The position numbers and the translations under genes were made by a program. DNA of 64,000 bases. Origin: Candidatus Margulisiibacteriota bacterium (GTDB lineage: Bacteria; Margulisbacteria; Marinamargulisbacteria; JBFWNS01). The stretch is from the NCBI GenBank assembly GCA_050250935.1, contig JBFWNS010000002.1, forward strand, positions 134,433 through 198,432, in the 5' to 3' direction. Positions 1 through 61,684 of the stretch are shown one piece after another; positions within the stretch are counted from its first letter, which is position 1, and each line of letters begins with the position of its first letter. The notes under the pieces were generated by a model. The model was given only the letters and a program-made list of their open reading frames with translations, was not told the origin of the DNA and ran no database searches.

Positions 1-338
1 GCAATTTTTGCACTTGTAACAGCACCCGTCGTTAAGTCCCCGGCAACGATGGCATTGGACAAGTTCAATTTGCTATACGCAATTGCAGCCGCGCTGTTGA
101 TGTCTGCATTCGTGATGCTGTCATCCGCGATTTTAGCCGAAGTTACAGCACCGTCGGCCAAGTCAACTGCGACTATCGTTCCATCAGCAATTTTTGCACT
201 TGTAACAGCACCCGTCGTTAAGTCCCCGGCAACGATGGCATTGGACAAGTTCAATTTGCTATACGCAATTGCAGCCGCGCTGTTGATGTCTGCATTCGTG
301 ATGCTGTCATCCGCGATTTTAGCTGAAGTTACAGCACC
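1..338. repeat. Near-identical 186-nt (62-aa) coding tandem repeat in the fibre gene
   Basis: GCAATTTTTGCACTTGTAACAGCACCCGTC... starts at both 1 and 187 and stays nearly identical to about 152/338. Confidence 0.9.
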
Positions 339-3300
339 ATCCACGATTTTGGCCGTGCCAACTGTTCCGTCTGCAATTGAACTTGCCACCACACCCGTTA
401 AGCCGGCTCCACCACCCACAAAATTGGTAGCCGTTACAGTGCCATTGAAGTTTGAGGTCACTACCGTTGAATTAATTGAAAACGTTGTCCCAGTTAAGCT
501 TAAGCCTGTTCCATTGGTATAGGTGGTATCCACATCTGACGCTGGCGCCCACGCACTGCCATTCCATTTTAATGCCTGACCGGAGGTTGCAGATGCTTGG
601 GTAAGGGCTGAAGGGGCAATTGAAATTGCAGTAGAGGTTGCCGCTGTCAAACGTCCTTGGGCATCCACGGTTAATGCTGGCACAGTGGACGCTGATCCAT
701 AGCTCCCTGCTGTGACGGCGGTATTGGCCAATTTGGCTGCGGTTACAGCACCATCCACGATCTTGGCCGTGCTGACTGTTCCGTCTGCAATTGAACTCGC
801 CACCACACCTGTTAACCCTGCACCTCCACCCACAAAATTGGTAGCCGTTACAGTACCATTGAAGTTTGAGGTCACTACCGTTGAATCAATTGAAAAGGCT
901 GTGCCACTCAAACCAAGACCTGTACCTGCTGTATAGACATTTCCAGAATCTGCAGCAGGAGCCCACGCACTTCCATTCCATTTTAATACTTCACCAGAAG
1001 CTGCAGACGCTTGGGTAATGGCCGAAGGTGCAATTGAAATCGCGGTGTTGGTTACCCCCGTGATCTGACCTTGGGCATTCACACTAAAGGTAGGTACTGT
1101 CGCAGCCCCACCATAGCTACCCGCTGTAACACCCGATGCCGACAACGCTGCAGAGGCGGGTTCCCATTGGCTTGTGCTATTGTTCCATTGCAACACTTGG
1201 CCATTCGTTGGTGCCGTGCTGGCCACGGTTCGGCCTTGAAGGGTCGAGGCTGAAATTCCACCTGATAGCGTGTTGATGTTGGTTGAAGTAATCGCCAATT
1301 TTGAAAACGCAATCGAGGCTCCTGAAGCGATGTTCGTGTCGGTAATGGAAACAGGAACTAACGTTACACCCGTAATCTGACCTTGGGCATTCACACTAAA
1401 GGTGGGTACTGTCGCAGCCCCACCGTAGCTGCCGGCACTGACGCCAGCGCTGGCCAAGGAAAGAACACCACCAGCCAAACTTAGCCCAGTTCCCGCACTG
1501 AGGTTGGCGGTTGGTTCCCATTGGGCTGATGTCGCATTCCAATTGAGATACTGACCATTGGCCGGTGCAGCAGCCGAAATGGTTCTGCCTTGCAAGGTTG
1601 AGGCTGAAATCCCACCAGACAATCCATTGATGTTGGCAGAGGTGATGGCCAGTTTTGTAAAATCGATGGCTGCATTGCTGGCCACGTTGGCGTTGGTTAC
1701 AGCAATGGGGGTGTTGGTTACCGAGGTGACTTGACCTTGTTGATTAACCGCAAAAACGGGCACGCTTGTTGCCGATCCATAAATGGAAGGCGACAAACCG
1801 CTGATATCGGATATCGAAATGGCATTGGCACCGGAAATAGAAACCCCGGTTCCCGCAGTGTACGAAGTTCCTGCATCTGTTCCTGGCAACCAATTGCCGG
1901 CCGAACTATTCCATTTCAATACCTGACCATCGGTTGTACCGGATTGAATTCCCAATTTTCCGCTGGAAATGGTTAGCCCTGTTCCTTGAAGATCTGTAAC
2001 CGTTTTGCCAGACATTGCGATACCGCTAAGCAAAACGGTGCTGTTGATGGAAACCGTTGCACTTGAACCCACAACCAAATTGCCAGTCGACAGCGTGCTG
2101 CTGGCATCGGAACGCAGGAATGAAGACGAAGACAAACCGCCCACGGTACTGGCATCATTAACATTGGTTTGGGTGAAAACCAGTCCTGTACCCGTAGAGT
2201 TGACCTGCACATAGCTGTTGGCCACATAGGTTTTGTTTAGAACATCGGTTAAATTGATGAAGGACAACATGTTGTTGGTGGATGTAAATTCCAGTCGGGT
2301 TCCGGCAGAATTCACCCGAATAAAACCACCGGGATAGGTGCTTAACAAACCATTGTTGGGGGCATCGGTCAGACTCATAAAGGAGCTGGCGCCGCCATTA
2401 ACTTTGGCCCAAGATGTGGTGTCGATGTACTTTACAATCCCGCTGGAATCGACGGTCAACACTTTATTGTTGTCGGTTAAAGACACCAACGAATTGAGTC
2501 TGGATTCACCCGAAACCACCAGGGCACCATTGACATTTAAAGTAGAGCCCGCTGCTACACCCAAACTTGCTGCCGTTGATGCGCCCACAGTGGAATTGGC
2601 ATCGCTGCGCAATAAACTGGAAGCCGTTAGACCGGCCAAAGCGTTTGATTTATTCCAAGACGAGGTGTCGATATATTTAACAGTTCCATTTTCAACGGTC
2701 AGGACCCGATTGTTATCGGTCGAGCTAACCCCAGGATCGACATTGATGTTTCCTGAAACGTTCAATACCGTCAACGACCCCAATCCTGTGATGTTGGTAT
2801 AAGCGCCAGACACCATATTGGCACTGGTAATGGTGGTATTCGCAATTTGGGCGCCCGTGATCGAACCGGTTGCAATGCTGGAACTTGGAACAGATCCAGA
2901 AATTTTAGAAGCAGAAATGGGACCGACAATGTGACTGTCTTGAATAGCACCGGTGGCAATCATTCCCGAGGTAATAGATCCGGAGGCAATTTGCGATGCC
3001 GAAACCGTTCCAGACAAAGCACTGACAGCTGGCTTATTGGCAACATTGCTCCAATCTACGCTAAACGCTTGGTCGGAATAAGCCGATTTTAAAGCATATG
3101 GAACCGCCACAACTGGCACACGGACTTCTTGGTTGGTATCTAAAAAGGTAAACCCAAAATTTGCCGTGGGTTGATCCAACATCGTGGCATTAAAGGTGGT
3201 TGTTTTCCCCAATTCGGCCGTAAACGCACCATTGGTGAACTGCAGGCTTTGGGTTTCGGTCCAAAGCGCCACATTTGAAGAAGAGTACAGGGTAATTTTG

Positions 3301-3464
3301 ACCGATTTTAACCCGTTGATTAACCCGGTGTTACTGTCCGAGATGATGGCTTCGATTTTAACAGTCGAGGGCGTAGATGCCATAACCGCGTTGCCCAACA
3401 GCACAAAGCCCAGCAACGCCCCAATAATCCCCTTTACTACTGCCTTTTTCATCAAACTGGTCAT
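1..3464 (-). CDS. Giant secreted repeat-rich fibre/adhesin, phage tail-fibre-like (partial, runs off the left edge, >1150 aa)
   Basis: Absent from the ORF track because it has no stop in the window. AGGAG RBS then ATG at 3464 (MTSLMKKAVVKGIIGALLGFVLLGNAVMA, signal-peptide-like). The same frame reads sensibly at the window edge (...AAIAYSKLNLSNAIVAGDLTTGAVTSAKI). The N-terminal domain has LWTETQ..F.NGAF.AELG...RVPVVAVPYALKSA, followed by Ser/Thr/Ala/Gly-rich repeats. Confidence 0.85.
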   Translation of the reverse strand, partial: MTSLMKKAVVKGIIGALLGFVLLGNAVMASTPSTVKIEAIISDSNTGLINGLKSVKITLYSSSNVALWTETQSLQFTNGAFTAELGKTTTFNATMLDQPTANFGFTFLDTNQEVRVPVVAVPYALKSAYSDQAFSVDWSNVANKPAVSALSGTVSASQIASGSITSGMIATGAIQDSHIVGPISASKISGSVPSSSIATGSITGAQIANTTITSANMVSGAYTNITGLGSLTVLNVSGNINVDPGVSSTDNNRVLTVENGTVKYIDTSSWNKSNALAGLTASSLLRSDANSTVGASTAASLGVAAGSTLNVNGALVVSGESRLNSLVSLTDNNKVLTVDSSGIVKYIDTTSWAKVNGGASSFMSLTDAPNNGLLSTYPGGFIRVNSAGTRLEFTSTNNMLSFINLTDVLNKTYVANSYVQVNSTGTGLVFTQTNVNDASTVGGLSSSSFLRSDASSTLSTGNLVVGSSATVSINSTVLLSGIAMSGKTVTDLQGTGLTISSGKLGIQSGTTDGQVLKWNSSAGNWLPGTDAGTSYTAGTGVSISGANAISISDISGLSPSIYGSATSVPVFAVNQQGQVTSVTNTPIAVTNANVASNAAIDFTKLAITSANINGLSGGISASTLQGRTISAAAPANGQYLNWNATSAQWEPTANLSAGTGLSLAGGVLSLASAGVSAGSYGGAATVPTFSVNAQGQITGVTLVPVSITDTNIASGASIAFSKLAITSTNINTLSGGISASTLQGRTVASTAPTNGQVLQWNNSTSQWEPASAALSASGVTAGSYGGAATVPTFSVNAQGQITGVTNTAISIAPSAITQASAASGEVLKWNGSAWAPAADSGNVYTAGTGLGLSGTAFSIDSTVVTSNFNGTVTATNFVGGGAGLTGVVASSIADGTVSTAKIVDGAVTAAKLANTAVTAGSYGSASTVPALTVDAQGRLTAATSTAISIAPSALTQASATSGQALKWNGSAWAPASDVDTTYTNGTGLSLTGTTFSINSTVVTSNFNGTVTATNFVGGGAGLTGVVASSIADGTVGTAKIVDGAVTSAKIADDSITNADINSAAAIAYSKLNLSNAIVAGDLTTGAVTSAKIADGTIVAVDLADGAVTSAKIADDSITNADINSAAAIAYSKLNLSNAIVAGDLTTGAVTSAKI
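328..1430. repeat. Diverged 414-nt (138-aa) coding repeat plus a further partial copy in the fibre gene
   Basis: Matching anchors at 328/742, 547/961, 610/1024 and 655/1069. CCTTGGGCATTCACACTAAAGGT recurs at 1069 and 1381. Confidence 0.85.
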
Positions 3465-3501: not shown

Positions 3502-4425
3502 TTAGAAATTTAAGCTCATCGAAAAATAATTTTTATTGTCATACAACAAATGCTCACTTTTTTCGTAAGCATAGTTGAGCTGTAACATGTCCAACTTAAA
3601 GCCAAGACCCAAGGTTACATTACTTTTAATGTTGTTCAACGCCAAGAACTGTTTATACCCGGCCGTTAATTGAATATAAGGTAAGAATGACGGCGTATAG
3701 TTCACACCCGCTGCAAACAAGTTTTTGCCTTGTTTGAGGGAACACTGCCCCATCACAGCAACATCATTATAGGTGTATTTGACACCCCCAACCACTTGGG
3801 TTGGAAGGGTTTCTACGCCATCGTCGATTTGAATTTGTTGGCCAGAAAAAATATTTCGGGCAAACAACGAAAGTTCGATGGGGTTAAGATCGTAGGTTGC
3901 ACCCAGGTCCATGTTGGTGGCTTTTCCTGAAAAGGTATAAAAAGAAGTGCTGTATTGAACCAAAGAAGCCCCCACCGACAGATTCTTTGCTATCGTATTT
4001 TCGTACGAGATCTTGGTGATTTGATTTTTATAATCAAAGTTAAGGTTGGAATAGAATTGGCTGTTCCCCGTAGAAATTTCGGTGAAGGGGATATTTGAAA
4101 CCGCTGCTTCCATATAGCCAAAGCCAATTTTACCAATGGGCGTTGTGGTGGCCACAGCAATACTGGTATAGGTTAGTTCGTTCATGAAGGTTGTTGTGAA
4201 GACCGAAACAGAACCACGGTTAACCCTTTTGAGCGCCGCGGGGTTATCGAAAATGCTGTTGGCAGCACTGCCATACCCTTCGATATTGCCCATCCCAATC
4301 ATTTCGGCAGAAGAACCCACTTCCGAAATTAAAAAGTATTCGGCAGCCATGGGCTTGGAGGTCAAAAGCAAGACCCCGACAAACACACAGGATAAAAACG
4401 TAAGGCCGTGTTTTAGTTGTTTCAT
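3502..4425 (-). CDS. PorV/PorQ-like outer-membrane beta-barrel
   Basis: Signal peptide; N-terminal GSSAEMIGMG...ANSIFDNPAAL motif; amphipathic beta strands; C-terminal aromatic residue (YFSMSLNF). Confidence 0.7.
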   Translation of the reverse strand: MKQLKHGLTFLSCVFVGVLLLTSKPMAAEYFLISEVGSSAEMIGMGNIEGYGSAANSIFDNPAALKRVNRGSVSVFTTTFMNELTYTSIAVATTTPIGKIGFGYMEAAVSNIPFTEISTGNSQFYSNLNFDYKNQITKISYENTIAKNLSVGASLVQYSTSFYTFSGKATNMDLGATYDLNPIELSLFARNIFSGQQIQIDDGVETLPTQVVGGVKYTYNDVAVMGQCSLKQGKNLFAAGVNYTPSFLPYIQLTAGYKQFLALNNIKSNVTLGLGFKLDMLQLNYAYEKSEHLLYDNKNYFSMSLNF

Positions 4426-4979
4426 GGGCGCACCACAAACTTTCCTTTACCAATAACTTTGCCGTCATTGATGATCAGGAAGAAATACACACCGGAATAC
4501 AAATCAAAATTGTTAAAGTCGCTGCGGTTCAAGGGCACTGCGTTCCAGCCCAAGGCACCGCCATTGAGCTGACCAGCACTAAAGTTTTTTCGGTATATTT
4601 CGCTGGCCAACATGTCGTAGATTCGAATTTCGATGTTGGCAGGGAGTGTTAGGGTATATCCGATTTTGGGGACGTCAGACAATTTTGCGGGGTTGGGATA
4701 AACCAGAGGGGTTCCGGTTAGCTCGGCTCCGGCCACACTGGAACTGCCAATACTGCTCACTTGTACAGCATTCTCGTCGGCCAAAATTCCGTATCCAAAT
4801 TTATAAACAACAAGTGACGAACTACCAGTGTCTTGGTAGGCCGTAAAAAAGTCGTGAATGACGTACGAATAGGAGGTGTAGATCAAAGACGAGGATTGGG
4901 CAAAAACGGGCGCAGCCGCCAGCCCCAAACTCATCAGACACAGTAGAATCGCTTTTTTCATAATGGATTGAACTCTCAA
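4422..4979 (-). CDS. Small secreted protein consisting mostly of a T9SS type-A-like C-terminal sorting domain
   Basis: Signal peptide (MKKAILLCLMSLGLAAAPVFA); PLVYPNP...IRIYD...SGVYF...GKGKFVV pattern. The start may be the internal ATG. Confidence 0.7.
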   Translation of the reverse strand: MRVQSIMKKAILLCLMSLGLAAAPVFAQSSSLIYTSYSYVIHDFFTAYQDTGSSSLVVYKFGYGILADENAVQVSSIGSSSVAGAELTGTPLVYPNPAKLSDVPKIGYTLTLPANIEIRIYDMLASEIYRKNFSAGQLNGGALGWNAVPLNRSDFNNFDLYSGVYFFLIINDGKVIGKGKFVVRP

Positions 4980-5039
4980 CGTCTCTTTTGTCGGACTAGG
5001 ATCAGGAGGCGTTGATATTCGGCCCCCTTCGCCAAATAT

Positions 5040-5068
5040 TTATCGGTTCTACCAATACAAAATTGCAA
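5040..5068 (-). promoter_or_regulatory. Sigma-28 (FliA/SigD)-like promoter
   Basis: Minus strand reads TTGCAA-N15-ACCGATAA; the consensus is TAAA-N15-GCCGATAA. Confidence 0.5.
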
Positions 5069-5149
5069 CTTATTTTTAAAGATCAGAAAAATTCGATGTT
5101 TTACTGAGTCAAATAATTGGTAGTTATAGCTCCAAAAAATTTATCACAC

Positions 5150-5176
5150 TTATCGGGCCAAATCTATTGAAATTTA
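5150..5176 (-). promoter_or_regulatory. Sigma-28 (FliA/SigD)-like promoter
   Basis: Minus strand reads TAAA-N15-CCCGATAA, one mismatch to consensus, upstream of the CTD-barrel-fibre operon. Confidence 0.6.
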
Positions 5177-5254
5177 TTAATTGGATGTTTGAAACACATC
5201 GATAACGGGCAGATACAACACATAGAATCCAATCGCCTCGGGGGGGGACTAGAC

Positions 5255-6127
5255 GTGAAATGTATCGGTGTGTTGGTTATTATGATGTGTTTACTGGGAT
5301 CCGTAACCACCATTTCTGCAGTTGATTTTACAGATATGATTGGGGTCTCCAGCACTGCAAAAGGATTTGCAGTCACCGCTGAACAAAACAATATCGATGC
5401 CAGCTTAAAAAATCCCGCCGCCTTGGGCATCATGAGACGCATTCACTTCAAAACCAGCTATGGTAGCCTTTTTGATTCTGCCTATTACACCGCCAATTTA
5501 AGCATCGGAATTCCCATTAACACCAATTGGAGCGCGGCCCTTCAAGTGCCTACCAAAAGGATTCAAGACATTCCTTTGAGTGTGAATCAAGGGGGTCAAG
5601 GGGTGGCCATTGGGTCCTTTAACGATTCAGAAACCGTTGCCAATTTTACCCTTTCCCACCGAATCGGGATTCTGACTTTGGGCGCAGCTGCAAACTATCG
5701 CAGCCGAGAATTGTACACCGCCACTGCCCAAGGCGTTGGGTTTGATGGGGGGTTGATGCTCGCAACCGGTCCACTTACCGTAGGGGCCAGCATTCGCAAC
5801 ATTGGCAAAACAACCCTAACCTGGAGCACTGGCACCACCGAAACCATTCAAGAACAATACAATGTCGGCATCGCCTACCAGCTGATGCCCATGGTAAAAC
5901 TATTGGCGGACACAACCTTGGGCACCACAACCGAAACCAACTTGGGCACGGTTTTTAGCCTGAACCCCTCGTTGAGATTTTTGGCCGGCATCCACGATGT
6001 GACCTCGAGTAAACAACTTGCCTTGGGGACAGAATTGGAATTGGACAGACTGACCGTTTCCTTTTCCTATCAAACCCATGACGAATTGGGAACCAGCTAC
6101 AAAGTGGGAGTTTCATATGCATACTAA
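5255..6127 (+). CDS. PorV/PorQ-like outer-membrane beta-barrel
   Basis: GTG at 5255 after a G-rich RBS gives a clean signal peptide; IGVSSTAKGFA...DASLKNPAAL motif; ends LGTSYKVGVSYAY. Confidence 0.7.
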   Translation: MKCIGVLVIMMCLLGSVTTISAVDFTDMIGVSSTAKGFAVTAEQNNIDASLKNPAALGIMRRIHFKTSYGSLFDSAYYTANLSIGIPINTNWSAALQVPTKRIQDIPLSVNQGGQGVAIGSFNDSETVANFTLSHRIGILTLGAAANYRSRELYTATAQGVGFDGGLMLATGPLTVGASIRNIGKTTLTWSTGTTETIQEQYNVGIAYQLMPMVKLLADTTLGTTTETNLGTVFSLNPSLRFLAGIHDVTSSKQLALGTELELDRLTVSFSYQTHDELGTSYKVGVSYAY

Positions 6128-7670
6128 GTTGAGAATGGTGTTGTGGATTGTTGCTGTGTTGGTTGTGCCAACGCTTGTTTTTGGCGAAGACGGTATTCCA
6201 GGTATGGTTGTGTTTGAAACCAAAGGGTCTCAAACCCAAATTGCATCGGTATCGTCCAACGGCTCGGTTTGGCGCAAGGCCAAACGGGTTGGGCAGTATG
6301 CTAAAAAAAGATCTGGTAAAACAGTTGCAGATGTTTCTTCGGAAGGCACCACTTATGTTATCGAACTGGAAAATGCTGCAGACACAACCGATGTACTGCA
6401 ACAACTTAAAGCAGATCCCACGATTCGCTATGCAGAACCCGTCTATCCCGTAACGGTATCTGGAATTCCCAATGACCCCTATTTCCATAACCAAACCTAT
6501 TTGCAACAACCCTCGCTAGAGCCGTTGTTGTTGGCTACGGGTTCGGCTTCGATTGTGGTGGCAGTCGTGGATACCGGCGTGGACACGAGCCATGTCGACT
6601 TACAAGGCGAAATTCAAGATGGGGGCTACAATTTTTATGGCTCTATTTGGGGGCTACAAAACGACGATTATATGGATTATCACGGCCATGGCACCCATTT
6701 GTCGGGTATTATTGCCGCCGACCAAAACAATGGCATTGGCATTAGTGGGATAAATAACACGGTCAAAATTCTGCCCGTTCGGTTTTTGGACAGTGGCGGA
6801 CGGGGCAATCAGCTCGATGCGGCTGCTGCCATTCGGTATGCGGTGGATCACAACGCTCGCATTATTAACTGCAGTTGGGGATTTACGGCTTTTAATCAGG
6901 CTTTAAAAGATGCCTTTGATTATGCGGCCCAAAATGGGGTTATCGTTTTTGCAGCTGCTGGCAACTCCAATACAGCCATTACCGAGTACCCAGCCGGATT
7001 CGACAGCGTCATTTCGGTGGCCTCGGTGGATACCTCGTTGTCTCGGTCTTATTTTTCGAGCTATGGGGCCAAAGTTTTGTTTTCGGCCTTTGGGAACAGC
7101 ATTTTCTCTTTGGCGCCACACAACCAATATGCCTATATGAGTGGGACGTCTCAAAGCACAGCGGTGATGAGTGGGATTGCCGCCAAGGCCCTTTCGATTA
7201 AACCCAGCCTAACCAAAGCCCAGTTGATCGACAGCTTTATTCAATCCGCAAGCAACACCACACGCAACGATTCGACAGGTTATGGCGTCGTACAAGGGAC
7301 ATCGTTGTTAAGCAGCCTCACCGGCAGCACGCCAGAGACCATCGAGCAGCACTATTCAGTTAGCACTGCCCTTTCCGAACCCAGCATTGAGAACGTCTTG
7401 AATTTTCCCAACCCTGTACCCGCCAGTGGCACAACCTTTGGGTTTTCAGCCAACAGTACCGGAACCCTCGAGCTGCTGATTTTTGACACCCGCGGCACCC
7501 AAGTGAAGCGTTTGAACGGCGTTGTCCTGGCCACCTACAATACCTATGCTTGGGACGGAAAATCCGAAAGTGGCGAGGTTCTTCCCAATGGCACCTACTT
7601 TTATGTGGTTAAAGCAGATCTGGGAACCAAAACCCTTAAAGCCAAAGGCAAGCTGGCGATTCTGCGCTAG
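6117..7670 (+). CDS. S8 (subtilisin-like) serine peptidase with a C-terminal T9SS/FlgD-Ig-like sorting domain
   Basis: VAVVDTG, HGHGTH, AAAGN and SGTS catalytic motifs; C-terminal NFPNP...IFD..G..VK...WDGK...LPNGTYFY...KGKLAILR. Confidence 0.9.
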   Translation: MHTKLRMVLWIVAVLVVPTLVFGEDGIPGMVVFETKGSQTQIASVSSNGSVWRKAKRVGQYAKKRSGKTVADVSSEGTTYVIELENAADTTDVLQQLKADPTIRYAEPVYPVTVSGIPNDPYFHNQTYLQQPSLEPLLLATGSASIVVAVVDTGVDTSHVDLQGEIQDGGYNFYGSIWGLQNDDYMDYHGHGTHLSGIIAADQNNGIGISGINNTVKILPVRFLDSGGRGNQLDAAAAIRYAVDHNARIINCSWGFTAFNQALKDAFDYAAQNGVIVFAAAGNSNTAITEYPAGFDSVISVASVDTSLSRSYFSSYGAKVLFSAFGNSIFSLAPHNQYAYMSGTSQSTAVMSGIAAKALSIKPSLTKAQLIDSFIQSASNTTRNDSTGYGVVQGTSLLSSLTGSTPETIEQHYSVSTALSEPSIENVLNFPNPVPASGTTFGFSANSTGTLELLIFDTRGTQVKRLNGVVLATYNTYAWDGKSESGEVLPNGTYFYVVKADLGTKTLKAKGKLAILR

Positions 7671-16009: not shown

Positions 16010-17842
16010 TTAATCATCATCGATATCACTATCACTGGAAGCGGCATCATAGGTGCCGTAATCATCAGCGGCATCATCGACAGTGTCATCATCAGCGACA
16101 TCTGCGGCATCATAGGTGCCGTAATCATCAGCGGCATCATCGGCAGTGTCATCATCTTCCAATAGGTGTTGTTGTAATTCAGTTTTTAAACGTCTGTCTT
16201 CTCTGAGTTCTATTGTTCTGGAATAGCCCGTACCATGATTTTGTTTCCTGATATGGTCTCTGCCTCTAGGCCCAACATGATGTTGTGTTGCCTCTTTAAC
16301 AAATCCAATAGCCCTATCATCACCCAACTCGTTTAATAAACTTAGAACATCTGGAAAGCCTTGCAAGATGTGCATTATTCTGAGTCGGTCCCTACTTGGT
16401 AGATCCTGAACGACCTCACAAAGGAATAACCGAATTAAACGATCAACAACACGGTTGTAACCATACATTTGTGCTAGTTCCAGTGGCGACTTGTTTTCTA
16501 TATAAATTTCTAAAACAGTCCGAATTGCACCTTGTTCATTATTATCCCTACAAGCATACACCATGCCGTCAATCAAAGCTTGGGCAACGGCAGGATCAAG
16601 ACCATTTAAAAGTTCTACCACATTTTCTGCAGCATCATCACTGCTCAGTGCGTAGTCTTTTAAAAGTTTCTGCACCTCTCTATTTTGGGCGAGGCTCACT
16701 TTGGCATCCGCATTGGTCTCATCTTGCACAAAGGCTATTAATTTGTCCGCAATGTGCTCCCATACACCCACTTGGGTGACTTGGGCCAAAACTAAGAATA
16801 GATTGGCTTTCTGGGCATCCTCCCCACAAGCACCCACCATACCGTCAATCAAAGTTTGGGCAACAGCAGGGTCAAGACCATTTAAAAGTTCTACCACATT
16901 TTCTGCAGCATCATCACTGCTCAGTGTGTAGTCTTTTAAAAGAGTTTGCACATTATTATCTTGGGCAAGTGCTGCTTTGTGAGCACCCGTGGTACTAGTA
17001 GCTTGCATAAAGGCTATTAACTTTGCCGCTATGTGCTGCCATACACCACCTTGGGTGACCTTGGCCAAAACTTGGATCAGCCGAACTTTTTGATCCCCAT
17101 CATCCCCACAAACATCCACCATGCCGTCAATCAAAGTTTGGGCAACTGCAACTTCAACCTTGTTTAAATGCGCTACCACTGTTTCAGCAGCATCATCGCC
17201 ACTCAACGTGTAGTCTTTTAAAGGGGCGCCGTTCACAGCCCCTGCTTTTACAAGAGCCCGTCGAATTTTTAGAGCAAGGGCTTCTAGGTCTGTAAAACTG
17301 TTTACTGGGATTTTACGTGCAAAAGCCTCATGGGCCGCAAATTGGTCCACAACGGCTTGGGGTTCTCGGGCGAGGAAGGCTTTAATCCAATCTACGTTTT
17401 TTTCGGCCAAAACTTTTTGGATCAATGCGGCGTCTATAACAAGTTCTTTATACATTTTGTGCAAACCCTCTTCCACGGTGCGAGGGGTTTGTTGGCTAGC
17501 AGCTTCGTACCAAAGCGAATCTTGGGGCAAAACACACATAAGATAGGATGCGGCACCAAAGGCATTGAAGGCAGAATGGACTACTTGGCTACAGCGTTCT
17601 ATCTCTTTTTGAACGGATTCAAGTTTAAGCCTAGCTTCTCCTAAGTCTCTACCTCTCTTAACCGCTGCCATGGTACTTTCATTCTTAGGTTTCACCTTGA
17701 GCTCTTCGACCCTAGCTTCGCATTGGGTTCTGTCTTCCAAAAGTTTACGCCATTGCATTGCGGTTTTTATAATTACTGGTGGGGACAAAGTGGGAGGGCT
17801 TGACGGATAATGTGGCTTTGATTTTGCAATAATTTTTTTCAT
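16010..17842 (-). CDS. Hypothetical protein with an N-terminal coiled coil, three 92-94 aa repeats and an Asp-rich tail
   Basis: 610-aa ORF with RBS AAGGA; repeats LKDY.LS.DDAAE.VV..LN.....VAQ.LIDGMV. Confidence 0.85.
   Translation of the reverse strand: MKKIIAKSKPHYPSSPPTLSPPVIIKTAMQWRKLLEDRTQCEARVEELKVKPKNESTMAAVKRGRDLGEARLKLESVQKEIERCSQVVHSAFNAFGAASYLMCVLPQDSLWYEAASQQTPRTVEEGLHKMYKELVIDAALIQKVLAEKNVDWIKAFLAREPQAVVDQFAAHEAFARKIPVNSFTDLEALALKIRRALVKAGAVNGAPLKDYTLSGDDAAETVVAHLNKVEVAVAQTLIDGMVDVCGDDGDQKVRLIQVLAKVTQGGVWQHIAAKLIAFMQATSTTGAHKAALAQDNNVQTLLKDYTLSSDDAAENVVELLNGLDPAVAQTLIDGMVGACGEDAQKANLFLVLAQVTQVGVWEHIADKLIAFVQDETNADAKVSLAQNREVQKLLKDYALSSDDAAENVVELLNGLDPAVAQALIDGMVYACRDNNEQGAIRTVLEIYIENKSPLELAQMYGYNRVVDRLIRLFLCEVVQDLPSRDRLRIMHILQGFPDVLSLLNELGDDRAIGFVKEATQHHVGPRGRDHIRKQNHGTGYSRTIELREDRRLKTELQQHLLEDDDTADDAADDYGTYDAADVADDDTVDDAADDYGTYDAASSDSDIDDD
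16041..16156. repeat. 63-nt coding duplication (DDTxDDAADDYGTYDAA)
   Basis: GCGGCATCATAGGTGCCGTAATCATCAGCGGCATCATCG at 16041 and 16104. Confidence 0.9.
16561..17222. repeat. Three coding repeats with 276-nt and 282-nt spacing
   Basis: CCAT(G/A)CCGTCAATCAAAG anchor at 16561, 16837 and 17119. Confidence 0.9.
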
Positions 17843-17853
17843 GGGAGGTTCCT

Positions 17854-20800
17854 TTAACTTTCGGTCGAGGAGTCAGTTCTAGCATCGTCGTTATCTGCAT
17901 CAGACCTATCATCGGCGGCTGAATTAGATCGGTCTAAAACCACCACGCTACTAGCTGAAACGCGCAATGCAGCAGAGGCATGGCTAGGTGTTCGAGTTCG
18001 GGCCGTTGTAGCAGCTGTAGCAGAACCGGGCTCAGCGGCGGCAGCCATTGTCGAGGCACGTTTACGACACGCAAGCTCGAACACGTCCGGATTGTCCCTT
18101 TGAATTTGTTCTAGATACGCTATTAAACGATCCTGCTGGGCTGCGTCTAGAACACCCATTGCGTATTTCACCAGCTCTGTTGTCCATAGTTTGGGATGTT
18201 GGCGGATGTAGGTTGTAATGCTGGACTCTTGGTGAGGGGTAGTGGGCCGAGAGTGCAAGGCAGCTGAAGACACGGGGGCTATTGGTAGAAAAGGTCCTGT
18301 AGATGCCGCTACCGCAGCTTGGATTGCAACAATGGGTGTAAAGCTTATAGGGCTTGCTGGAGATGTTGATGAAGGCCTAAGCACCTGCGCCGATTGAGGA
18401 GATTGGACGAGTTGCGCTAACAATTGGGTTTGATCATTCAGAGCTAAAGGCGACACTCTCCCGGCAGAGGTAGCTGGGAGATCGGTCCTTGCTGGGAGAG
18501 CTTTAACCAAAATATTCAAGACTCTCTCATTATGCAGACCAAAAATAAAGGCTTTGTTATTTTCGGTCAGTAATTCAAGCCAATCTTTAAGCGTGAAGCT
18601 CAACTCTATGCTTGCAGGACGGGTGTCGGTAGTACTTTCTACTTCCGGCATAAGAAGTGGCCAACTCACGTATTCTTGCATTAATTTTAAAATCTGAATG
18701 CGTTCTATCAAATTAAAATCGCGGGTTAATCCTACTCGACTGAGATGCTCATCGCTATAAAAACTTGGACATTTTCCCAGGACACTGATCAAATCCATTT
18801 CCAGCCGACCCAAGCACTCAATAACCGCTGGTTCGAAACGGATATCAACCCCCACAGCAACCCAGTCTTTCACTACCTGCACCGCTTGTTCTTCTGGAGA
18901 AGTTTTATCATGAGGTACACAAAGCGCGTCCAAAGTTTGATCTAGAACCGTTAACCCTTCAGAAGCCATCACCACTGCAGCGGAGGCTACCAAGGTATGA
19001 AGGGGGTTACGATCTAAAGCCTCTCGTATCCGATCACACGTCTGAGAATCCGCGCCAGTCGTTTCCACAAAACCATCCTCAAGCCATTGGTCAACATCGA
19101 AGCTATGAAATTTAACAAAAAAAAAGTCGCCTATTACTTGACTGGTTTGTTCACTCTCCTCTCTGGAAAAAGCTTTTTGAAGTAGCAAGGAAAGATGTTG
19201 AGCGTACAGCATGCTGGCGCCTTGTGTTTGGCGAAGTAAGTTCAAGCCGTCGGCCAAGGATTGTCCAATCTCTGCAAGTCGCTCTATTTGGGTGATCACT
19301 GTTGTACGGGTTTCAACCCATTCTTCGAACTCGCAAAGCCATACTTTAACTCGTTGGGCTCTGACTGCAGGTGGTTTTTTCTGAAAGGCAGGACTAAGTA
19401 ACTCGTTTCGGGTTGTTTGAAGTTTGTTAAAAGTTTCTTCAAACGTCCCAACCACTTCTGCAAGATGACGCTGTTGACCCGGATAGGCCACTGTAATGGC
19501 GCCTTGCATATCCATCATTGAAACCAGATGTTGTTCGGACGGCCTCACCCTGTCTGGGGTGGCTCGTAATACACGATGTGGCGTTACGTTTACTGCAGTG
19601 GCGGGGAATTCGGTGGCAGACAAAGACAGTGGCGTTGAATGTTGAGGAACCAATCTCGAAGCCATTGGAGTCAAATCTAAACCAACTCCGGCAGCAGTAC
19701 TATCCCCTACATCTGAATCTGAAACAGATGATAAACTTCTACTTAATCTTGATGTCATCGACGCAGAGAAATCCATCCTATGGGTGCTGGATTCAAATTG
19801 TAAGTGAGATTCTACTGTAGTTAAACGATCAAAAGCAGGGGAAGCAGCCGGAGTTCTAACACCATGTCGCAAAGCTGTAGCAGCACGCACGACCGTTACA
19901 GCTACATTGAGCCTTTCAACAGGACCTCGACGATGAAACAGAGATAGCCCCCAAGCCCTTACCTCCCTGACTAATGCGTTACCACTGTCCTCTTTTCTTT
20001 GTAATTCCCACTTATTGGTTGATAACCCTTGTGCAAGCGTTTCGCCATGGCGGGCTAAGAAATCAGAAACTTTCTGACCCAGTGTTTGGCATAGCGTCTC
20101 CAGTGCATCTACGCAATCCTGAAGAGAAACCTGGGAAAGCAGTTTATCTTTCTCAATAAATTGAACAATCTCCAAGTCATTACCGGCTATAATTAGACCC
20201 GCTAAAATTTTAAGGGCGAGTTGAACATTTTGTTGGGGGGAAACGAGTTCAGAATTAACAATCAAACGCCACCGATGGCATTGGTCTAGGTTAAAGTCAG
20301 GCCCGTCCAATGCGCGTTGGATATTCGAGACAGATCGTGTATGCCTCAAAAGGGCGATTGCGTGTAACCAATAGGGTTCAGAAGGCGATTCGACAAGCGT
20401 TTGCAGGCCATCGGAAACCAACCGTTGAGCAGTTTCCTGCCAAAGCCACTCCGCATGGTTCATATCAATTGAGGTGTGATGCAACAGGGCTTCAACACCT
20501 CTGTACAGGCTTTCAAATTGGGTAGGCCCAAACCTTAATTGTTCAAAACCAGGTTTATTTTGAGCTAAACCAAGAATAATGAATGGGGCTAGTCGCGTAA
20601 ACACTTCTCCTGTGGCATAGCGCGCACTATCAACAATAACTGTGCAGGTGTTCGCTAAAAGTTCGTTAAGTAGCTTTTTTCCTTCAGAACACGTTTGCAA
20701 ACTCCCTACAATGCGAACAACCGCTTCTTCCTTGACCCCCTTACCTTCGACACAATGCATTAGAAATTTTTCTTGGAATGTTCGCGCTCTCACCCCCGTT

Positions 20801-21381
20801 GTCCCCTCGTTAGCCTTGGTTATTAGCGCAGTTACAACCACGTCGAGTTTTTCTGGAGACACCAACTGTGTAACCGTTTCCAAAATAGCAAAGAATCTTT
20901 TTGCGCTGATTTCCTTGCCATCACTGGTTTTGCAAAACACCATCAACCTGGCCAACGCCCCGACTGCATTGTCATCGTTTTGTATTGCGGCTCGATACTC
21001 CATCAACTGGGCTGCAGGTAATAGGGCTGCAACAGCTTGTTTTTTAAATTGGAATTTGGCTGTAATCTTTCCCCAGAATCCATTGCGATCACCAGAAACA
21101 TCCAACTGAAGCACCCGAACACAAGCAAAAAGATCCGATAGTGAAAGATGTTTGTTATCTAAAAACTTCCCTAGCAATATCTTTTTTTGAGAATCTGGGG
21201 TGGTTTCCGGAATGGATTGTTGATCTTGTCTCCGAATGGCTGCTAGAAGGGTTCTAGGATTCATGGCGTCAAGTTCAATCAAAACTTCATGCTCTCGACC
21301 AAAACTATCCATTAGACGCACTGAATCGGCAGATCGCGCAAAAGGCATTCTTGCCGCTACTATCTTTTTTAACCCCACCAT
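17854..21381 (-). CDS. Large orphan hypothetical protein (1175 aa)
   Basis: Long ORF with strong RBS (AAGGAG); helical regions separated by Ser/Thr/Pro/Ala-rich low-complexity segments; acidic C-terminus; no signal peptide and no motif recognised. Confidence 0.85.
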   Translation of the reverse strand: MVGLKKIVAARMPFARSADSVRLMDSFGREHEVLIELDAMNPRTLLAAIRRQDQQSIPETTPDSQKKILLGKFLDNKHLSLSDLFACVRVLQLDVSGDRNGFWGKITAKFQFKKQAVAALLPAAQLMEYRAAIQNDDNAVGALARLMVFCKTSDGKEISAKRFFAILETVTQLVSPEKLDVVVTALITKANEGTTGVRARTFQEKFLMHCVEGKGVKEEAVVRIVGSLQTCSEGKKLLNELLANTCTVIVDSARYATGEVFTRLAPFIILGLAQNKPGFEQLRFGPTQFESLYRGVEALLHHTSIDMNHAEWLWQETAQRLVSDGLQTLVESPSEPYWLHAIALLRHTRSVSNIQRALDGPDFNLDQCHRWRLIVNSELVSPQQNVQLALKILAGLIIAGNDLEIVQFIEKDKLLSQVSLQDCVDALETLCQTLGQKVSDFLARHGETLAQGLSTNKWELQRKEDSGNALVREVRAWGLSLFHRRGPVERLNVAVTVVRAATALRHGVRTPAASPAFDRLTTVESHLQFESSTHRMDFSASMTSRLSRSLSSVSDSDVGDSTAAGVGLDLTPMASRLVPQHSTPLSLSATEFPATAVNVTPHRVLRATPDRVRPSEQHLVSMMDMQGAITVAYPGQQRHLAEVVGTFEETFNKLQTTRNELLSPAFQKKPPAVRAQRVKVWLCEFEEWVETRTTVITQIERLAEIGQSLADGLNLLRQTQGASMLYAQHLSLLLQKAFSREESEQTSQVIGDFFFVKFHSFDVDQWLEDGFVETTGADSQTCDRIREALDRNPLHTLVASAAVVMASEGLTVLDQTLDALCVPHDKTSPEEQAVQVVKDWVAVGVDIRFEPAVIECLGRLEMDLISVLGKCPSFYSDEHLSRVGLTRDFNLIERIQILKLMQEYVSWPLLMPEVESTTDTRPASIELSFTLKDWLELLTENNKAFIFGLHNERVLNILVKALPARTDLPATSAGRVSPLALNDQTQLLAQLVQSPQSAQVLRPSSTSPASPISFTPIVAIQAAVAASTGPFLPIAPVSSAALHSRPTTPHQESSITTYIRQHPKLWTTELVKYAMGVLDAAQQDRLIAYLEQIQRDNPDVFELACRKRASTMAAAAEPGSATAATTARTRTPSHASAALRVSASSVVVLDRSNSAADDRSDADNDDARTDSSTES

Positions 21382-26183: not shown

Positions 26184-27632
26184 ATGCCCAATTACAAATT
26201 TATTTCTATCCTAGTACAACTACCAGAAACACCAAAAGAACGTGTTTTTGAAACAACCATTCCCCAAAACCTTAATTTACACAGGGGTTTAAAGCCGTTT
26301 ATTAAAGCCCTAACTCAAACCGCTGCACAAAACACGCTAGATTGTTTAAGGGGCGCCACTTCCCCTGCCCACCACGACACCGTCTGCCAGGCTCTAGAAA
26401 GAAGTCAGTCTGCTCATCTTCATGACTTTGAAGCCAAGCTAAAACAACCCGAAGTACTTTTTGCCCATTCAAAGTCTTTAAGGGGATTAACACGGCACGG
26501 CACTCATCTTGAAGGCAGTAACAGCATTTTTATGCTGATTGCCCGTGGACAACAACTCTTCTTACATGCCCAAAGGGCACCGTCTTCAAGCTTAAACAGA
26601 TCGTGTCAACGGTTAGCCGACGCCTTGATAGAAGCCGCACTTTGGACCCTTCAAATAGCCTTCACAAAAGCCGTTTTTACAAATGTGCCAGAAATTTTTC
26701 CACCTGATACAGAAAAAACCGTACTTGGGACACTTCTTAAGGCAAGATTCGAAAGTGCAAAGGCCAGCTGCCAAACCCCCATTCTTATTCCAATAAGTAA
26801 TGACACACACCAAATTTACTTTGGGGTAAAAATCAGTGATGCCAACGAAATAGAGGTTACTTATTATGAACTTGCCGGCAAAAAATATCCGCCAGACACC
26901 CCTGATGCCGCTACCTTAAAAGGCTCAAAAACAAAATTACAACGCTTGATTTTTCACCCTCAAAGCCCCGAATGGGCGATCTTTTTAAGGCAGGCAACAC
27001 TACTTATCGCACAAGCGTCTAGCTCTTTTGATGCATTTCAAACCTATCTTGATACCTTACCCCCTTCAAACCAAAGCTTAACCAACCGTACTTTTAATGT
27101 TCAAACCGTCGGAAATTGCGCATTTAAAGGTCTCTCGGCAGTCATTCATGAGGCCCTTGGTGACGGGTATAAAGGCTTTCGAAAAGCCGAACACGATCAC
27201 TACCAAAATCAACTATCCCGATCGCAAAAGCGTTATTATGGCAGAGAAAAATTTACGGTCCGTACTCAATTTCTTATTTTTGCAGGCCTAGGTGTTCCTT
27301 GCGACATATTGGAAAGTCAATATCATCGGCGCATTTCACCAGAAAGTGCACAACGCTTGGTTAGACTTCGCCACCCAAAATGGAAAGACAGGATGGCCGC
27401 CTACTTAACCCGTTATTGTAAAAGCTTACTCGATGGCTCCGGCCAAAATTATCCTACATATTTAAACCTGTTAGGGCTTCAAAATCTCGAAAAACTTACC
27501 TCTAAAACGATCAATCGTCATGTAAGGGAAGCACAGAATGCCTTTATTATTTTAAAACTCGCCCCTATTCCATTGCGGATTTTATATACAAACCCAGATG
27601 AAGCGATAAAGTACTATGAGTGTGATGATTAG
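26184..27632 (+). CDS. Orphan hypothetical protein, candidate cysteine protease (His...Glu...QxxGNC)
   Basis: 482-aa ORF, visibly AT-rich; THQIYFGV, YYELAG and VQTVGNCAFK motifs. Confidence 0.7.
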   Translation: MPNYKFISILVQLPETPKERVFETTIPQNLNLHRGLKPFIKALTQTAAQNTLDCLRGATSPAHHDTVCQALERSQSAHLHDFEAKLKQPEVLFAHSKSLRGLTRHGTHLEGSNSIFMLIARGQQLFLHAQRAPSSSLNRSCQRLADALIEAALWTLQIAFTKAVFTNVPEIFPPDTEKTVLGTLLKARFESAKASCQTPILIPISNDTHQIYFGVKISDANEIEVTYYELAGKKYPPDTPDAATLKGSKTKLQRLIFHPQSPEWAIFLRQATLLIAQASSSFDAFQTYLDTLPPSNQSLTNRTFNVQTVGNCAFKGLSAVIHEALGDGYKGFRKAEHDHYQNQLSRSQKRYYGREKFTVRTQFLIFAGLGVPCDILESQYHRRISPESAQRLVRLRHPKWKDRMAAYLTRYCKSLLDGSGQNYPTYLNLLGLQNLEKLTSKTINRHVREAQNAFIILKLAPIPLRILYTNPDEAIKYYECDD

Positions 27633-40813: not shown

Positions 40814-40839
40814 CGCTCTACCAACTGAGCTATTCCCGC
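40764..40839 (-). tRNA. tRNA-Gly (TCC)
   Basis: GCGGGAATAGCTCAGTTGGTAGAGCGCTAGCCTTCCAAGCTTGATGTCGAGGGTTCGAGTCCCTTTTCCCGCTCCA: 76 nt, D and T arms, anticodon TCC, encoded CCA. Confidence 0.95.
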
Positions 40840-59268: not shown

Positions 59269-60198
59269 TTAGTATTTCATCGAAAACGAAATGTAGTGTT
59301 GGGATTCTTGTTGGAAGGCATCGGTGGTGTCGTAGCAATATTCCACGATTACCGGTTGCAGATCCAAGCTCAGCCCGATGGTGACAGAACCCCGGGTGGT
59401 GGTGCTGGTTTTGGGGATTTCTTTGTAGCCCAAACTCAGCCCAACCAATTTCGATTCCAGGGGATAAACTTTAAGACCCATTCCAGGCATGACTCGAGCC
59501 ACTGCCGAGCTGCGTTTGAGTTGTAAATACAGGTCGCCATTCATAAGGGGGAAGCTGTTGCTTTTGTAGCCAACACCCCATTCCGAGGCCAAACCTTCTT
59601 GGGCCCCATTGCTATAAAGCACTTTGTTGCCCAATACGTTTCGTCCAAATAATTGCCAATCGCCCACTGCACTGGTGTAGCGAATCCCCACCCCAAAATC
59701 GAACCCGTTTCCGGTGAGGGTTGCCAGGGTTCGGGCATAGTCGGTTACAGAGATACCAATGTTCAAATTGTCGCGTTGATAGTTCATTCCCGCCACATAT
59801 TGGGCACTGGAATAGGCAAAGGTTCCCACCGAAATGGCTTCGTTGCTGTTGTTTGTGGCGGTTGCATCAATGCCCCCTACCCCTTCGTAGACAACACCAA
59901 ACCCAAGGGTGATATCGGCTCTGGGTTTGATACTGACGGCACCCGTCATGTACGTGGTGTCGCCACCAAAATAGGTGGTATAGAAGGTGGACAAGCTGTT
60001 GCCAGCATAAGCTAGCCCCGTGGGACTTTCAAACACTACAGCCGCCGATTTGGTAAAACCCGAAACGTTGCCAATGCCAATCATGGCTGCAGAGGTTCCA
60101 ATTTCTGAAATATCTCTGAAATACTCTGCTTGAATCGAACCAGAAAGTCCGGCCAGTACGCCAATCAGAACCAGTGCTACTTTACTTTGTTTCAACAT
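59269..60198 (-). CDS. PorV/PorQ-like outer-membrane beta-barrel (paralogue of 3502-4425)
   Basis: AEYFRDISEIGTSAAMIGIGNV matches AEYFLISEVGSSAEMIGMGNI; ends HYISFSMKY. Confidence 0.7.
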   Translation of the reverse strand: MLKQSKVALVLIGVLAGLSGSIQAEYFRDISEIGTSAAMIGIGNVSGFTKSAAVVFESPTGLAYAGNSLSTFYTTYFGGDTTYMTGAVSIKPRADITLGFGVVYEGVGGIDATATNNSNEAISVGTFAYSSAQYVAGMNYQRDNLNIGISVTDYARTLATLTGNGFDFGVGIRYTSAVGDWQLFGRNVLGNKVLYSNGAQEGLASEWGVGYKSNSFPLMNGDLYLQLKRSSAVARVMPGMGLKVYPLESKLVGLSLGYKEIPKTSTTTRGSVTIGLSLDLQPVIVEYCYDTTDAFQQESQHYISFSMKY

Positions 60199-60264: not shown

Positions 60265-61533
60265 TTATTCTGGCAACACCGCAAATTTTCCCTTTCCCAG
60301 GACCTTGCCATTGTTCAACAGCACGTACATATAGACCCCGCTGGCCCAGCCTTCGCCAATAACGGCTTTGTTGATGACCACGCGGTTATAGCCCTGTTTT
60401 CCGCCTTCGTCCACCCCGCTTTTAAAGGTTTTTCGATAGATTTCGGTCCCCCAACTGGTGTAGACCCGCAGATCCATATCGGCCTCTTGGTTCAACCAAT
60501 AGCCAATAAAGGTTCCCGAGCTGAATTTAAAGGGATTGGGGACATTCAAGGGTCTACCGGCCGAGCCTTGAGCAGAAGCTCCTGTATCAAGGGTGACATT
60601 CAGTGTGGCCGGAGCCCCAATATGCCCCACGGTATCATAGGCAAATACGCTAAAATAGTAGGTATCATCAGGCAGGGTTGTGGCCACGGTCGCGGTCAGG
60701 CCATTCAGACTCACCCCAGTTCCTTGGGTGATGTCGATTGGAAAATCGGTGGTCGAACGCCGAACCACAATACCTTCCAAACTGAAATCTACGGGGGGAA
60801 CCCAGATCAGTTCTACGGAATTTCCAGATACAATGCTGATTAGGTTAGACACTTTGTCTGGCGCCGTGATGTCGATGGAAATATTAATGGTTGCGGGGGC
60901 CCCTATATTTCCTACCGTGTCATAGGCAAAAATGCTGTAATAATAGGTTCCATCTGGAACCGCTTCTTCCATAGTGGCGGTGGTGCCATTCAACGTAATC
61001 GATACGCCTTGGGTGGGGGTTGTCGGATAAACATCGTTGGCCCTGCGCACCACAATCCCCGAAAAATCGGGGTCCAAAGGCGGCACCCAAATCAGTTGAA
61101 CCACATTCCCCGACACAATCGAAAACAAACTAAAAACTTTGCCTGGAGCGGTTGTATCAACCGTGGCGCTTTGGGTAGCCGGTACACTGATATTTCCGGT
61201 GACATCGCTTGCAAAAATGGCATAGTAATACAACCCATCGGGAACCGAGCTCAGCGTGATGGACGTTCCAGTGATGTTTTGAGACACCACATTGCCCGAG
61301 GCGATGGTTTGGGGATAATTCGTGGTACTCACCCGAATGGTGGTGGAGGCAAAATCGTCGTCTGTAGGATTGGTCCAAGTTAAAACAACCGTGTTTCCGG
61401 AAGCCGTCGCCGTAAATTGAGTGGGTGGCCCTGGGGGCGTGGTGTCCGGTCCGGTTGCAAAAACAGACCCCATCAAACCCAAACTGAGCAGCACAGCAAA
61501 AAGACCGCTTCGCCCCCATTGTTTTAACAACAA
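60265..61533 (-). CDS. Secreted protein with three fibronectin-III-like repeats and a T9SS type-A-like C-terminal domain
   Basis: Three units D.T.P......GN.V.L.W..P.D...YY..FA.D..G; tail PLNVPNPF...SGVY.Y...GKVLGKGKFAVL. TTG 61533 follows the RBS AGGGGA. Confidence 0.8.
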   Translation of the reverse strand: MLLKQWGRSGLFAVLLSLGLMGSVFATGPDTTPPGPPTQFTATASGNTVVLTWTNPTDDDFASTTIRVSTTNYPQTIASGNVVSQNITGTSITLSSVPDGLYYYAIFASDVTGNISVPATQSATVDTTAPGKVFSLFSIVSGNVVQLIWVPPLDPDFSGIVVRRANDVYPTTPTQGVSITLNGTTATMEEAVPDGTYYYSIFAYDTVGNIGAPATINISIDITAPDKVSNLISIVSGNSVELIWVPPVDFSLEGIVVRRSTTDFPIDITQGTGVSLNGLTATVATTLPDDTYYFSVFAYDTVGHIGAPATLNVTLDTGASAQGSAGRPLNVPNPFKFSSGTFIGYWLNQEADMDLRVYTSWGTEIYRKTFKSGVDEGGKQGYNRVVINKAVIGEGWASGVYMYVLLNNGKVLGKGKFAVLPE

Positions 61534-61684
61534 AACAGTCCCCTTTAACAAAATTGTAGGATGAAAGCTGGACGTTTATACCCGTTAAGTAGGGTTTTCA
61601 AACATCCTTGGGCAGTACGGTTTAACTGGAATTTTGACAAGCCTACTAGAAGATCGCCCTAAAAGGAAGTATAGTTTTTCCTTC

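Follow-up and report, generated by a model that had tools for sequence, protein, structure and literature searches.

In the accessible literature, type IX secretion systems (T9SS) are placed only in Bacteroidota or in the Fibrobacteres-Chlorobi-Bacteroidetes (FCB) group. In the Flavobacterium johnsoniae SprA-PorV system (6H3I, 8GL6), as described in PMC10994853, a cargo carrying a type A C-terminal domain (CTD) enters the SprA pore, binds the loops of its carrier and leaves together with that carrier, and a GldLM motor is said to be needed to pull the substrate from SprA. In the type B PorP/SprF systems (PorP-PG1035 and SprF-SprB), as PMC9143113 describes them, one 14-stranded carrier is found per adjoining cargo and binds it as its surface anchor, the cargo staying on its cognate PorP-like barrel and PorE serving in some as the tether to the cell wall. 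In the P. gingivalis PorQ-PorZ and PorV-PorU pairs, PMC5562754 describes a PorV-family barrel as the anchor of one protein whose type A CTD is left uncleaved; PorZ stays on PorQ, and the two pairs form the sortase complex that serves all other cargos. Cognate carriers are, in short, already known in Bacteroidota (PorQ-PorZ, PorP-PG1035, SprF-SprB). Here we describe three cassettes, each joining a PorV-like barrel gene to a gene for a CTD protein, that are found in a stretch of 64,000 nucleotides (the whole of which is called the window) from an organism that is likely a member of the Margulisbacteria, a phylum near the Cyanobacteria.

Each of these cassettes probably encodes a type A CTD cargo together with a PorV-like barrel that acts as its own carrier and permanent anchor, within a reduced T9SS that has a predicted SprA-like pore and no detectable GldKLMN or PorU. 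The observations behind this reading are the homology of the barrels, the tails and the core of the pore, the pairing of the genes, the co-divergence of the paired proteins and the lack of matches to a motor or sortase; the steps of export, binding and anchoring are extrapolated from the Flavobacterium mechanism. The system resembles that of F. johnsoniae in its PorV-like carriers, type A CTDs and SprA-like giant barrels, and differs from it in that each genome has some 3-14 PorV-like barrels, most of them beside one cargo, and no match to GldK, L, M or N. With the PorP/SprF systems it would share the use of one adjoining 14-stranded carrier for each cargo as a lasting surface anchor, and it differs from them in that its tails score as type A, its barrels belong to the PorV/PorQ family, and it lies outside Bacteroidota with no motor found; the cell-wall tether, which is PorE in the PorP system, would in some pairs here be provided by fused SLH domains. 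Its proposed anchoring of one protein by one PorV-family barrel is that of PorQ-PorZ and PorV-PorU, except that here the pairing is the general rule and no PorU is found in the class.

The original prediction, made from the letters of the window alone, had proposed three cassettes of barrel and CTD cargo, and all six open reading frames (ORFs) lie where it had put them. Cassette 1 is on the minus strand; in it, the gene for a near-bare type A CTD protein (4422..4979; 185 residues from a TTG codon, comprising a signal-peptide-like start, a segment of about 60 residues and the CTD) precedes and overlaps by 4 nucleotides the gene for barrel 1 (3502..4425; 307 residues, PorV-like and 14-stranded), which is the predicted carrier and anchor of that protein. 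A third gene of this cassette, absent from the original prediction, begins 37 nucleotides downstream of barrel 1 and encodes a giant CTD-less repeat fibre of 1154 or more residues (1..3464, minus strand), its ORF leaving the window into a scaffold gap (a run of N at C2:134332-134432). Cassette 2, which diverges from cassette 1 across 4980-5254, is on the plus strand and has the reverse order, the gene for the PorV/PorQ-like barrel 2 (5255..6127, in a frame open from 5189) preceding that for a subtilase (S8) with a C-terminal type A CTD (6078..7670, with a likely start at ATG 6117; matches to PF00082 at E 2e-52, FlgD_ig and CHU_C). Cassette 3, again on the minus strand and in the order of CTD followed by barrel, consists of a 428-residue protein with three FN3-like repeats and a type A CTD (60265..61551; matches to fn3 and Big_13) and, after a gap of 66 nucleotides, the PorV-like barrel 3 (59269..60198; 309 residues).

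The shared features that had been ascribed to these proteins were found in part. The CTD motifs PNP, G.Y and KGK are invariant across the three cassettes, and F or Y ends all three barrels; of the two N-terminal barrel motifs that had been thought common to all, NPAAL is present in barrels 1 and 2 and absent from barrel 3, and G.SA..IG.G is present in barrels 1 and 3 and absent from barrel 2. Within the window, the two most similar barrels do go with the two most similar CTDs (barrel 1 shares 28% identity with barrel 3 and 20% with barrel 2; for CTD 1 the figures are 43% with CTD 3 and 24% with CTD 2), and genome-wide the nearest relative of barrel 1 is another paralogue (37% vs 25%). All three tails exceed the TIGR04183 cut-off of 23 bits, as expected of type A CTDs, with scores of 28.5 for the near-bare protein, 24.4 for the subtilase and 23.3 for the FN3 protein; the signal peptides of the CTD proteins were judged by eye.

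A census of CTDs and barrels was made with iterated hidden Markov models (HMMs), which replaced a regular-expression search for CTDs that was too noisy. In the host genome (G000; 1.95 Mb, 95.85% complete) it returned 11 CTD proteins, 11 strong barrels and 2 weaker barrel-like proteins, and eight of the CTD genes adjoin a barrel, one lies one gene away and two stand alone. Applied to 17 relatives of at least 90% completeness, drawn from 40 sampled genomes, it returned 125 barrel rows (122 after merging of split hits) and 126 CTD rows. The pairing is conserved among these relatives: 74 of the 126 CTD hits lie directly beside a co-oriented barrel, where 1-1.6 would be expected by chance, the barrel following directly in 61 cases and preceding directly in 13, and in a further 2 cases it is one gene away.

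The likeness of the barrels to PorV was borne out over their full length. A profile of 93 barrel sequences matched PorV (6H3I_F) at E 2.3e-16, with positions 9-282 of the profile aligned to PorV 32-395. Taken singly, barrel 1 matched NF033709 (PorV_fam) at E 5.7e-13 and barrel 2 matched NF033711 at E 9.6e-7 and NF052325 at E 4.9e-6, all below the respective cut-offs, and barrel 3 matched NF033711 at E 0.009 and belongs to the genome's own barrel profile at E 3.9e-80; one barrel paralogue elsewhere in the genome exceeds the NF033709 cut-off. The AlphaFold2 model of barrel 1 (pLDDT 96.5, pTM 0.91) comprises an N-terminal helical plug (a 40-residue segment) and 14 long strands, the latter counted by one of us from the DSSP list. 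By profile comparison and modelling, the window barrels are PorV relatives.

A pore was sought in the same genome, and three long ORFs (1721, 1007 and about 970 residues) were found to match the SprA family TIGR04189 weakly, the largest at E 1.6e-16 (58.8 bits, against a cut-off of 200). A 22-sequence profile of the SprA-like core matched F. johnsoniae SprA at E 1.5e-10, colinear with its residues 161-268 and 686-781 and omitting about 420 intervening residues. The large and small SprA-like forms are homologous to one another (HHalign 98.9%), and SprA-like matches were found in 107 of 109 genomes of the phylum. A model of the 1007-residue paralogue (846 residues; pLDDT 84, pTM 0.57) is all-beta with about 40 strands and aligns over 712-726 of its 846 residues with SprA residues 131-2401 (Z 16.4, root-mean-square deviation (rmsd) 8.1 A; Z 15.8, rmsd 7.4), where other barrels align over only 248-404 residues at Z up to 17.7; we take this fold comparison as moderate evidence of relatedness. 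These proteins share with F. johnsoniae SprA a colinear N-terminal core and, in the model, approximately the same number of strands, and differ from it in their length (1000-1900 residues, as against 2403) and in occurring as paralogues. At 24 of 33 loci the gene ahead of the large SprA-like gene is queA, and two of the three SprA-like genes of the host genome lie within two genes of a barrel. We read the small form as a paralogue of patchy occurrence that accompanies a large core form.

At several loci, small SprA-like genes are grouped with giant cargos, a barrel and an NHL propeller. Such modules, including that at G000:C9:31978-54134, contain a barrel, a protein that is either an NHL propeller or a coiled coil, and a protein of 230-275 residues without a Pfam match; giant CTD cargos are found in the modules of several genomes (5758 residues in G000 and 10112 in G009), and the modules are possibly dedicated translocons for giant cargo. 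A genome titled Chitinophagaceae (G042) carries a full GldKLMN and also, at the end of a contig, a fragment that shares 52% identity with the SprA core of the Margulisbacteria type, for which binning contamination is the simplest reading.

Searches for the motor, ring and sortase were negative in the class, which agrees with the original prediction that this is not a Bacteroidota-type genome with a complete T9SS. The host genome has no match to GldK, GldL, GldM, GldN or the PorU sortase. No genome passed the cut-off for GldL (0 of 27), GldM (0 of 45, with one weak match at E 1.8e-4) or GldN (0 of 45). GldK (FGE-sulfatase) was absent from all 18 class genomes, with partial matches below 100 bits in 12 other genomes of the phylum and a control at 306 bits; the C25 peptidase (PorU) was likewise matched in 0 of 18 class genomes, and in 1 of 45 genomes of the phylum, in a frame of 3856 residues. 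The positive control genome, G042, matched all five families (GldK, GldL, GldM, GldN and C25). At the level of sequence, then, there is no detectable GldKLMN motor or PorU sortase in the class; a complete Bacteroidota-type T9SS is rejected, and, as the motor, ring and sortase are not detected, the system would be one that works like the core of a T9SS and not a canonical T9SS.

The system might nonetheless be energised by a motor that escaped these searches, being either highly diverged GldLM/GldKN proteins or a borrowed TonB-ExbBD or Tol complex. HMMs trained on Bacteroidota may overlook remote homologues of the motor and sortase, extraction of substrates in F. johnsoniae needs energy according to PMC10994853, and the host genome carries three MotA/ExbB-family genes; at 1 of 33 loci a homologue of one of the three is the second gene behind the large SprA-like gene, and at a second locus a neighbour of it is found there. 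However, no motor-like gene is a conserved neighbour of the SprA-like gene, that place being taken by queA, and the search that found no GldK-like FGE-sulfatase in the 18 class genomes does find remote members of the family elsewhere. We consider such a motor rather unlikely, and compatible with the rest of the explanation preferred here.

The comparison of barrel and CTD trees that had been suggested along with the idea of cognate pairs was carried out across the class, and the two families co-diverge. Over the 77 pairs whose sequences were usable, the identity between barrels correlates with that between CTDs at rho 0.55, against 0.08 +/- 0.03 (maximum 0.28) for within-genome shuffles, and nearest neighbours agree in 527 of 930 cases where 191 would be expected. 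The barrel and CTD trees (FastTree, without support testing) show the same classes of pair: small CTD followed by barrel (27 pairs in 11 genomes), barrel followed by subtilase (8 pairs, found in 8 genomes), large CTD cargo followed by a barrel fused to SLH domains (13 pairs, the SLH domains having been scanned in the host-genome member only), barrel followed by giant cargo (6 pairs) and others (23 pairs). The fusion of a barrel to SLH domains suggests, from domain matches, a suitability for the role of anchor. Co-divergence of this kind is a sign of long co-inheritance and not proof of binding specificity, because duplication of linked genes would produce it as well.

That limit gives room to the view that the reduced T9SS is as described but that its barrels are interchangeable shuttles, the pairs being the product of duplication and co-regulation of linked genes. 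Linked genes co-diverge even without interaction, the agreement of nearest neighbours is incomplete, the fine branching within the small-CTD class differs between the two trees, and 50 of the 126 CTD hits have no neighbouring barrel. Against it, distinct classes of pair have persisted in 6 to 13 genomes of different families while the bodies of the cargos changed, and a single shuttle common to all cargos would have no need of 3-14 barrels in each genome; we regard interchangeable shuttling as improbable.

The original prediction had itself raised the possibility of another arrangement, in which every pair of barrel and CTD works alone, as a two-partner exporter or as an anchor, and dispenses with a translocon. 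The tight pairing of the genes and the 2 of 109 phylum genomes that lack an SprA-like match speak for this, but the arrangement is rejected on the three SprA-like giant barrels of this genome and their presence in nearly the whole phylum, two of the three being close to a barrel gene; moreover, the barrel model, with its N-terminal plug and 14 strands, would by analogy with PorV be too small to pass a folded CTD. The likelihood left to it is very small. Two-partner secretion of the TpsB/TpsA type was also considered, and the barrels (280 residues, 14 strands) gave no Omp85, POTRA or TPS match in Pfam or NCBIfam. That the barrels are FadL-type uptake channels, set beside surface hydrolases or adhesins and not binding CTDs, is very improbable, since the common hatch motif (E 3e-6 to 3DWO) and the proteases among adjoining cargos are outweighed by a full-length PorV match ten orders of magnitude better, by barrels that track CTD sequence and in places adjoin cargos without any enzyme part, and by a true FadL encoded separately in the genome (PF03349 at E 3e-27). 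FadL/TodX identity fails on domain matches as well, as the window barrels have no PF03349 match (about 420 residues expected at full length) and FadL-type structures match the barrel profile at its first 65 positions only, that is, at the N-terminal hatch.

Under the carrier-anchor reading, a cargo would be exported by Sec, and its folded CTD would enter an SprA-like pore encoded elsewhere in the genome, where the loops of the barrel would capture it at the lateral opening; the complex of barrel and cargo would then leave the pore. With no sortase to remove it, the CTD would escape cleavage and remain bound, so that one barrel would be needed for each displayed cargo, which would explain the pairing of the genes. 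Release from the pore might be powered by a high affinity of carrier for cargo or by a motor of the TonB/ExbBD type.

In cassette 1, the near-bare CTD protein may serve as an adaptor for the adjoining fibre by binding its N-terminal domain, a proposal that we hold tentatively, at slightly less than even odds, and that rests in part on modelling. The piece of the fibre beyond the scaffold gap contains a Peptidase_G2 chaperone domain (E 2.3e-8), which is typical of trimeric fibres. As in trimeric fibres with intramolecular chaperones (Peptidase_G2 / S74, as in phage tail fibres), a long repeat shaft is followed by a C-terminal chaperone and coiled coil; unlike phage tail fibres, it has a signal-peptide-like start and a conserved, unnamed N-terminal domain of 110 residues (3048-3380), and it has neither barrel anchor nor CTD of its own. 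That domain had no match in the PDB, 8 database relatives by word search, and otherwise only unnamed Atlas clusters. Once a split hit among 77 rows had been merged, the domain was counted 76 times, in 15 of 18 genomes, and in no case with a CTD in the same frame; 22 of the 76 hits come right after a small CTD gene, a barrel intervening in some of these cases, and 2 follow a barrel only. The near-bare CTD protein belongs to a family of which 38 members were aligned; the fetched loci contain 50 distinct CTD proteins of 300 residues or fewer, of which 18 precede a barrel and then a fibre and 4 directly precede a fibre, and CTD proteins of 150-260 residues occur in 14 of the 15 genomes with fibres and in none of the 3 without, these genomes being related and hence not independent. 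Similar gene pairs of a small CTD protein and a fibre are reportedly found in Flavobacteria. Prediction of the complex between adaptor and fibre domain gave a score of 0.38 (best control 0.00; partner pLDDT at least 66), and the runs had no fewer than 49% of their contacts in common. Of 157 solved pairs, 116 attained the mark, as did 2 of 215 mismatched ones; the support that this lends is weak, because at scores of 0.60 or less it was reached by only 18 solved pairs and by both mismatches.

Several observations weigh against these readings. No window barrel reaches any NCBIfam cut-off; sequence homology to SprA is limited to about 240 N-terminal residues, the alignment of the small paralogue by itself gives no SprA match in a sequence profile search, and ordering the fold comparison by Z puts SprA in 24th place (16.4), with many unrelated barrels no more than 1.3 Z away. 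In F. johnsoniae, according to PMC10994853, substrates stay trapped without the motor, and a motor-less version therefore needs another explanation. The 50 CTD hits without an adjacent partner in the 17 relatives are joined by 46 of the 122 barrels, so that some carriers must be shared, or else assemblies break the pairs, as fragmented assemblies may. With regard to the adaptor, 52 of the 76 fibres have no barrel or CTD gene directly upstream, the N-terminal segment of the adaptor barely co-varies with the fibre domain, at rho 0.12 (Mantel p 0.045), and more weakly than does the CTD (rho 0.31), and a secretin in the host genome would offer the fibres an alternative route.

Further architectures were noted around the barrels and CTDs. 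At G000:C6:35909-38164, a PorV-like barrel that stands behind a 1070-residue CTD protein is fused to an Ig-like region and to SLH domains; barrels of 740-815 residues stand behind a CTD cargo in this arrangement in 13 genomes and may be likened to a one-protein analogue of PorP-PorE. At G000:C1:416647-419202, a barrel-like N-terminal half is, as judged by eye, fused to an SppA-type protease, and matches of about 800 residues recur in relatives; at G006:C1:29436-30758, a protein of 479 residues, which has a barrel match and in addition a CTD-like one, lies itself behind a CTD cargo. A CTD protein of 7420 residues at G000:C2:80298-110119 has no PorV-like neighbour, and its operon includes a 441-residue barrel-like protein without a family match and two lipoprotein-like genes. 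A class of Ig and CTD proteins of 266-273 residues, accompanied by a barrel, adjoins short fibre-like genes in which the N-terminal domain is absent. Elsewhere in the window, three long ORFs (610, 1175 and 482 residues) at 16010-21381 (minus strand) and 26184-27632 (plus strand) have no Pfam match, and a tRNA gene at 40767-40839 (minus strand) is the sole Rfam match.

Cognate carriers as the rule for type A tails, beyond the FCB group and combined with a shortened SprA and the lack of a motor, are the subject of no report found in the open-access literature. On a broader and distinctly more speculative reading, which we judge possible, a whole phylum outside Bacteroidota and their allies has a motor-less and sortase-less T9SS, with a carrier-anchor for each class of cargo, half-size SprA proteins for giant cargos and CTD-less trimeric fibres exported and mounted by small CTD adaptors through the N-terminal domain of the fibre, and this could be the ancestral core of the T9SS. 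The adaptor, if real, would be an export route for proteins without a T9SS signal, one that current predictors of substrates would overlook. If the phylum-wide core of SprA, PorV and CTD without a motor or sortase is real, the outer-membrane module can work, and may have evolved, separately; it would also offer a three-component system, with an SprA of 1000 residues, for reconstitution, and so make the real role of the motor testable.

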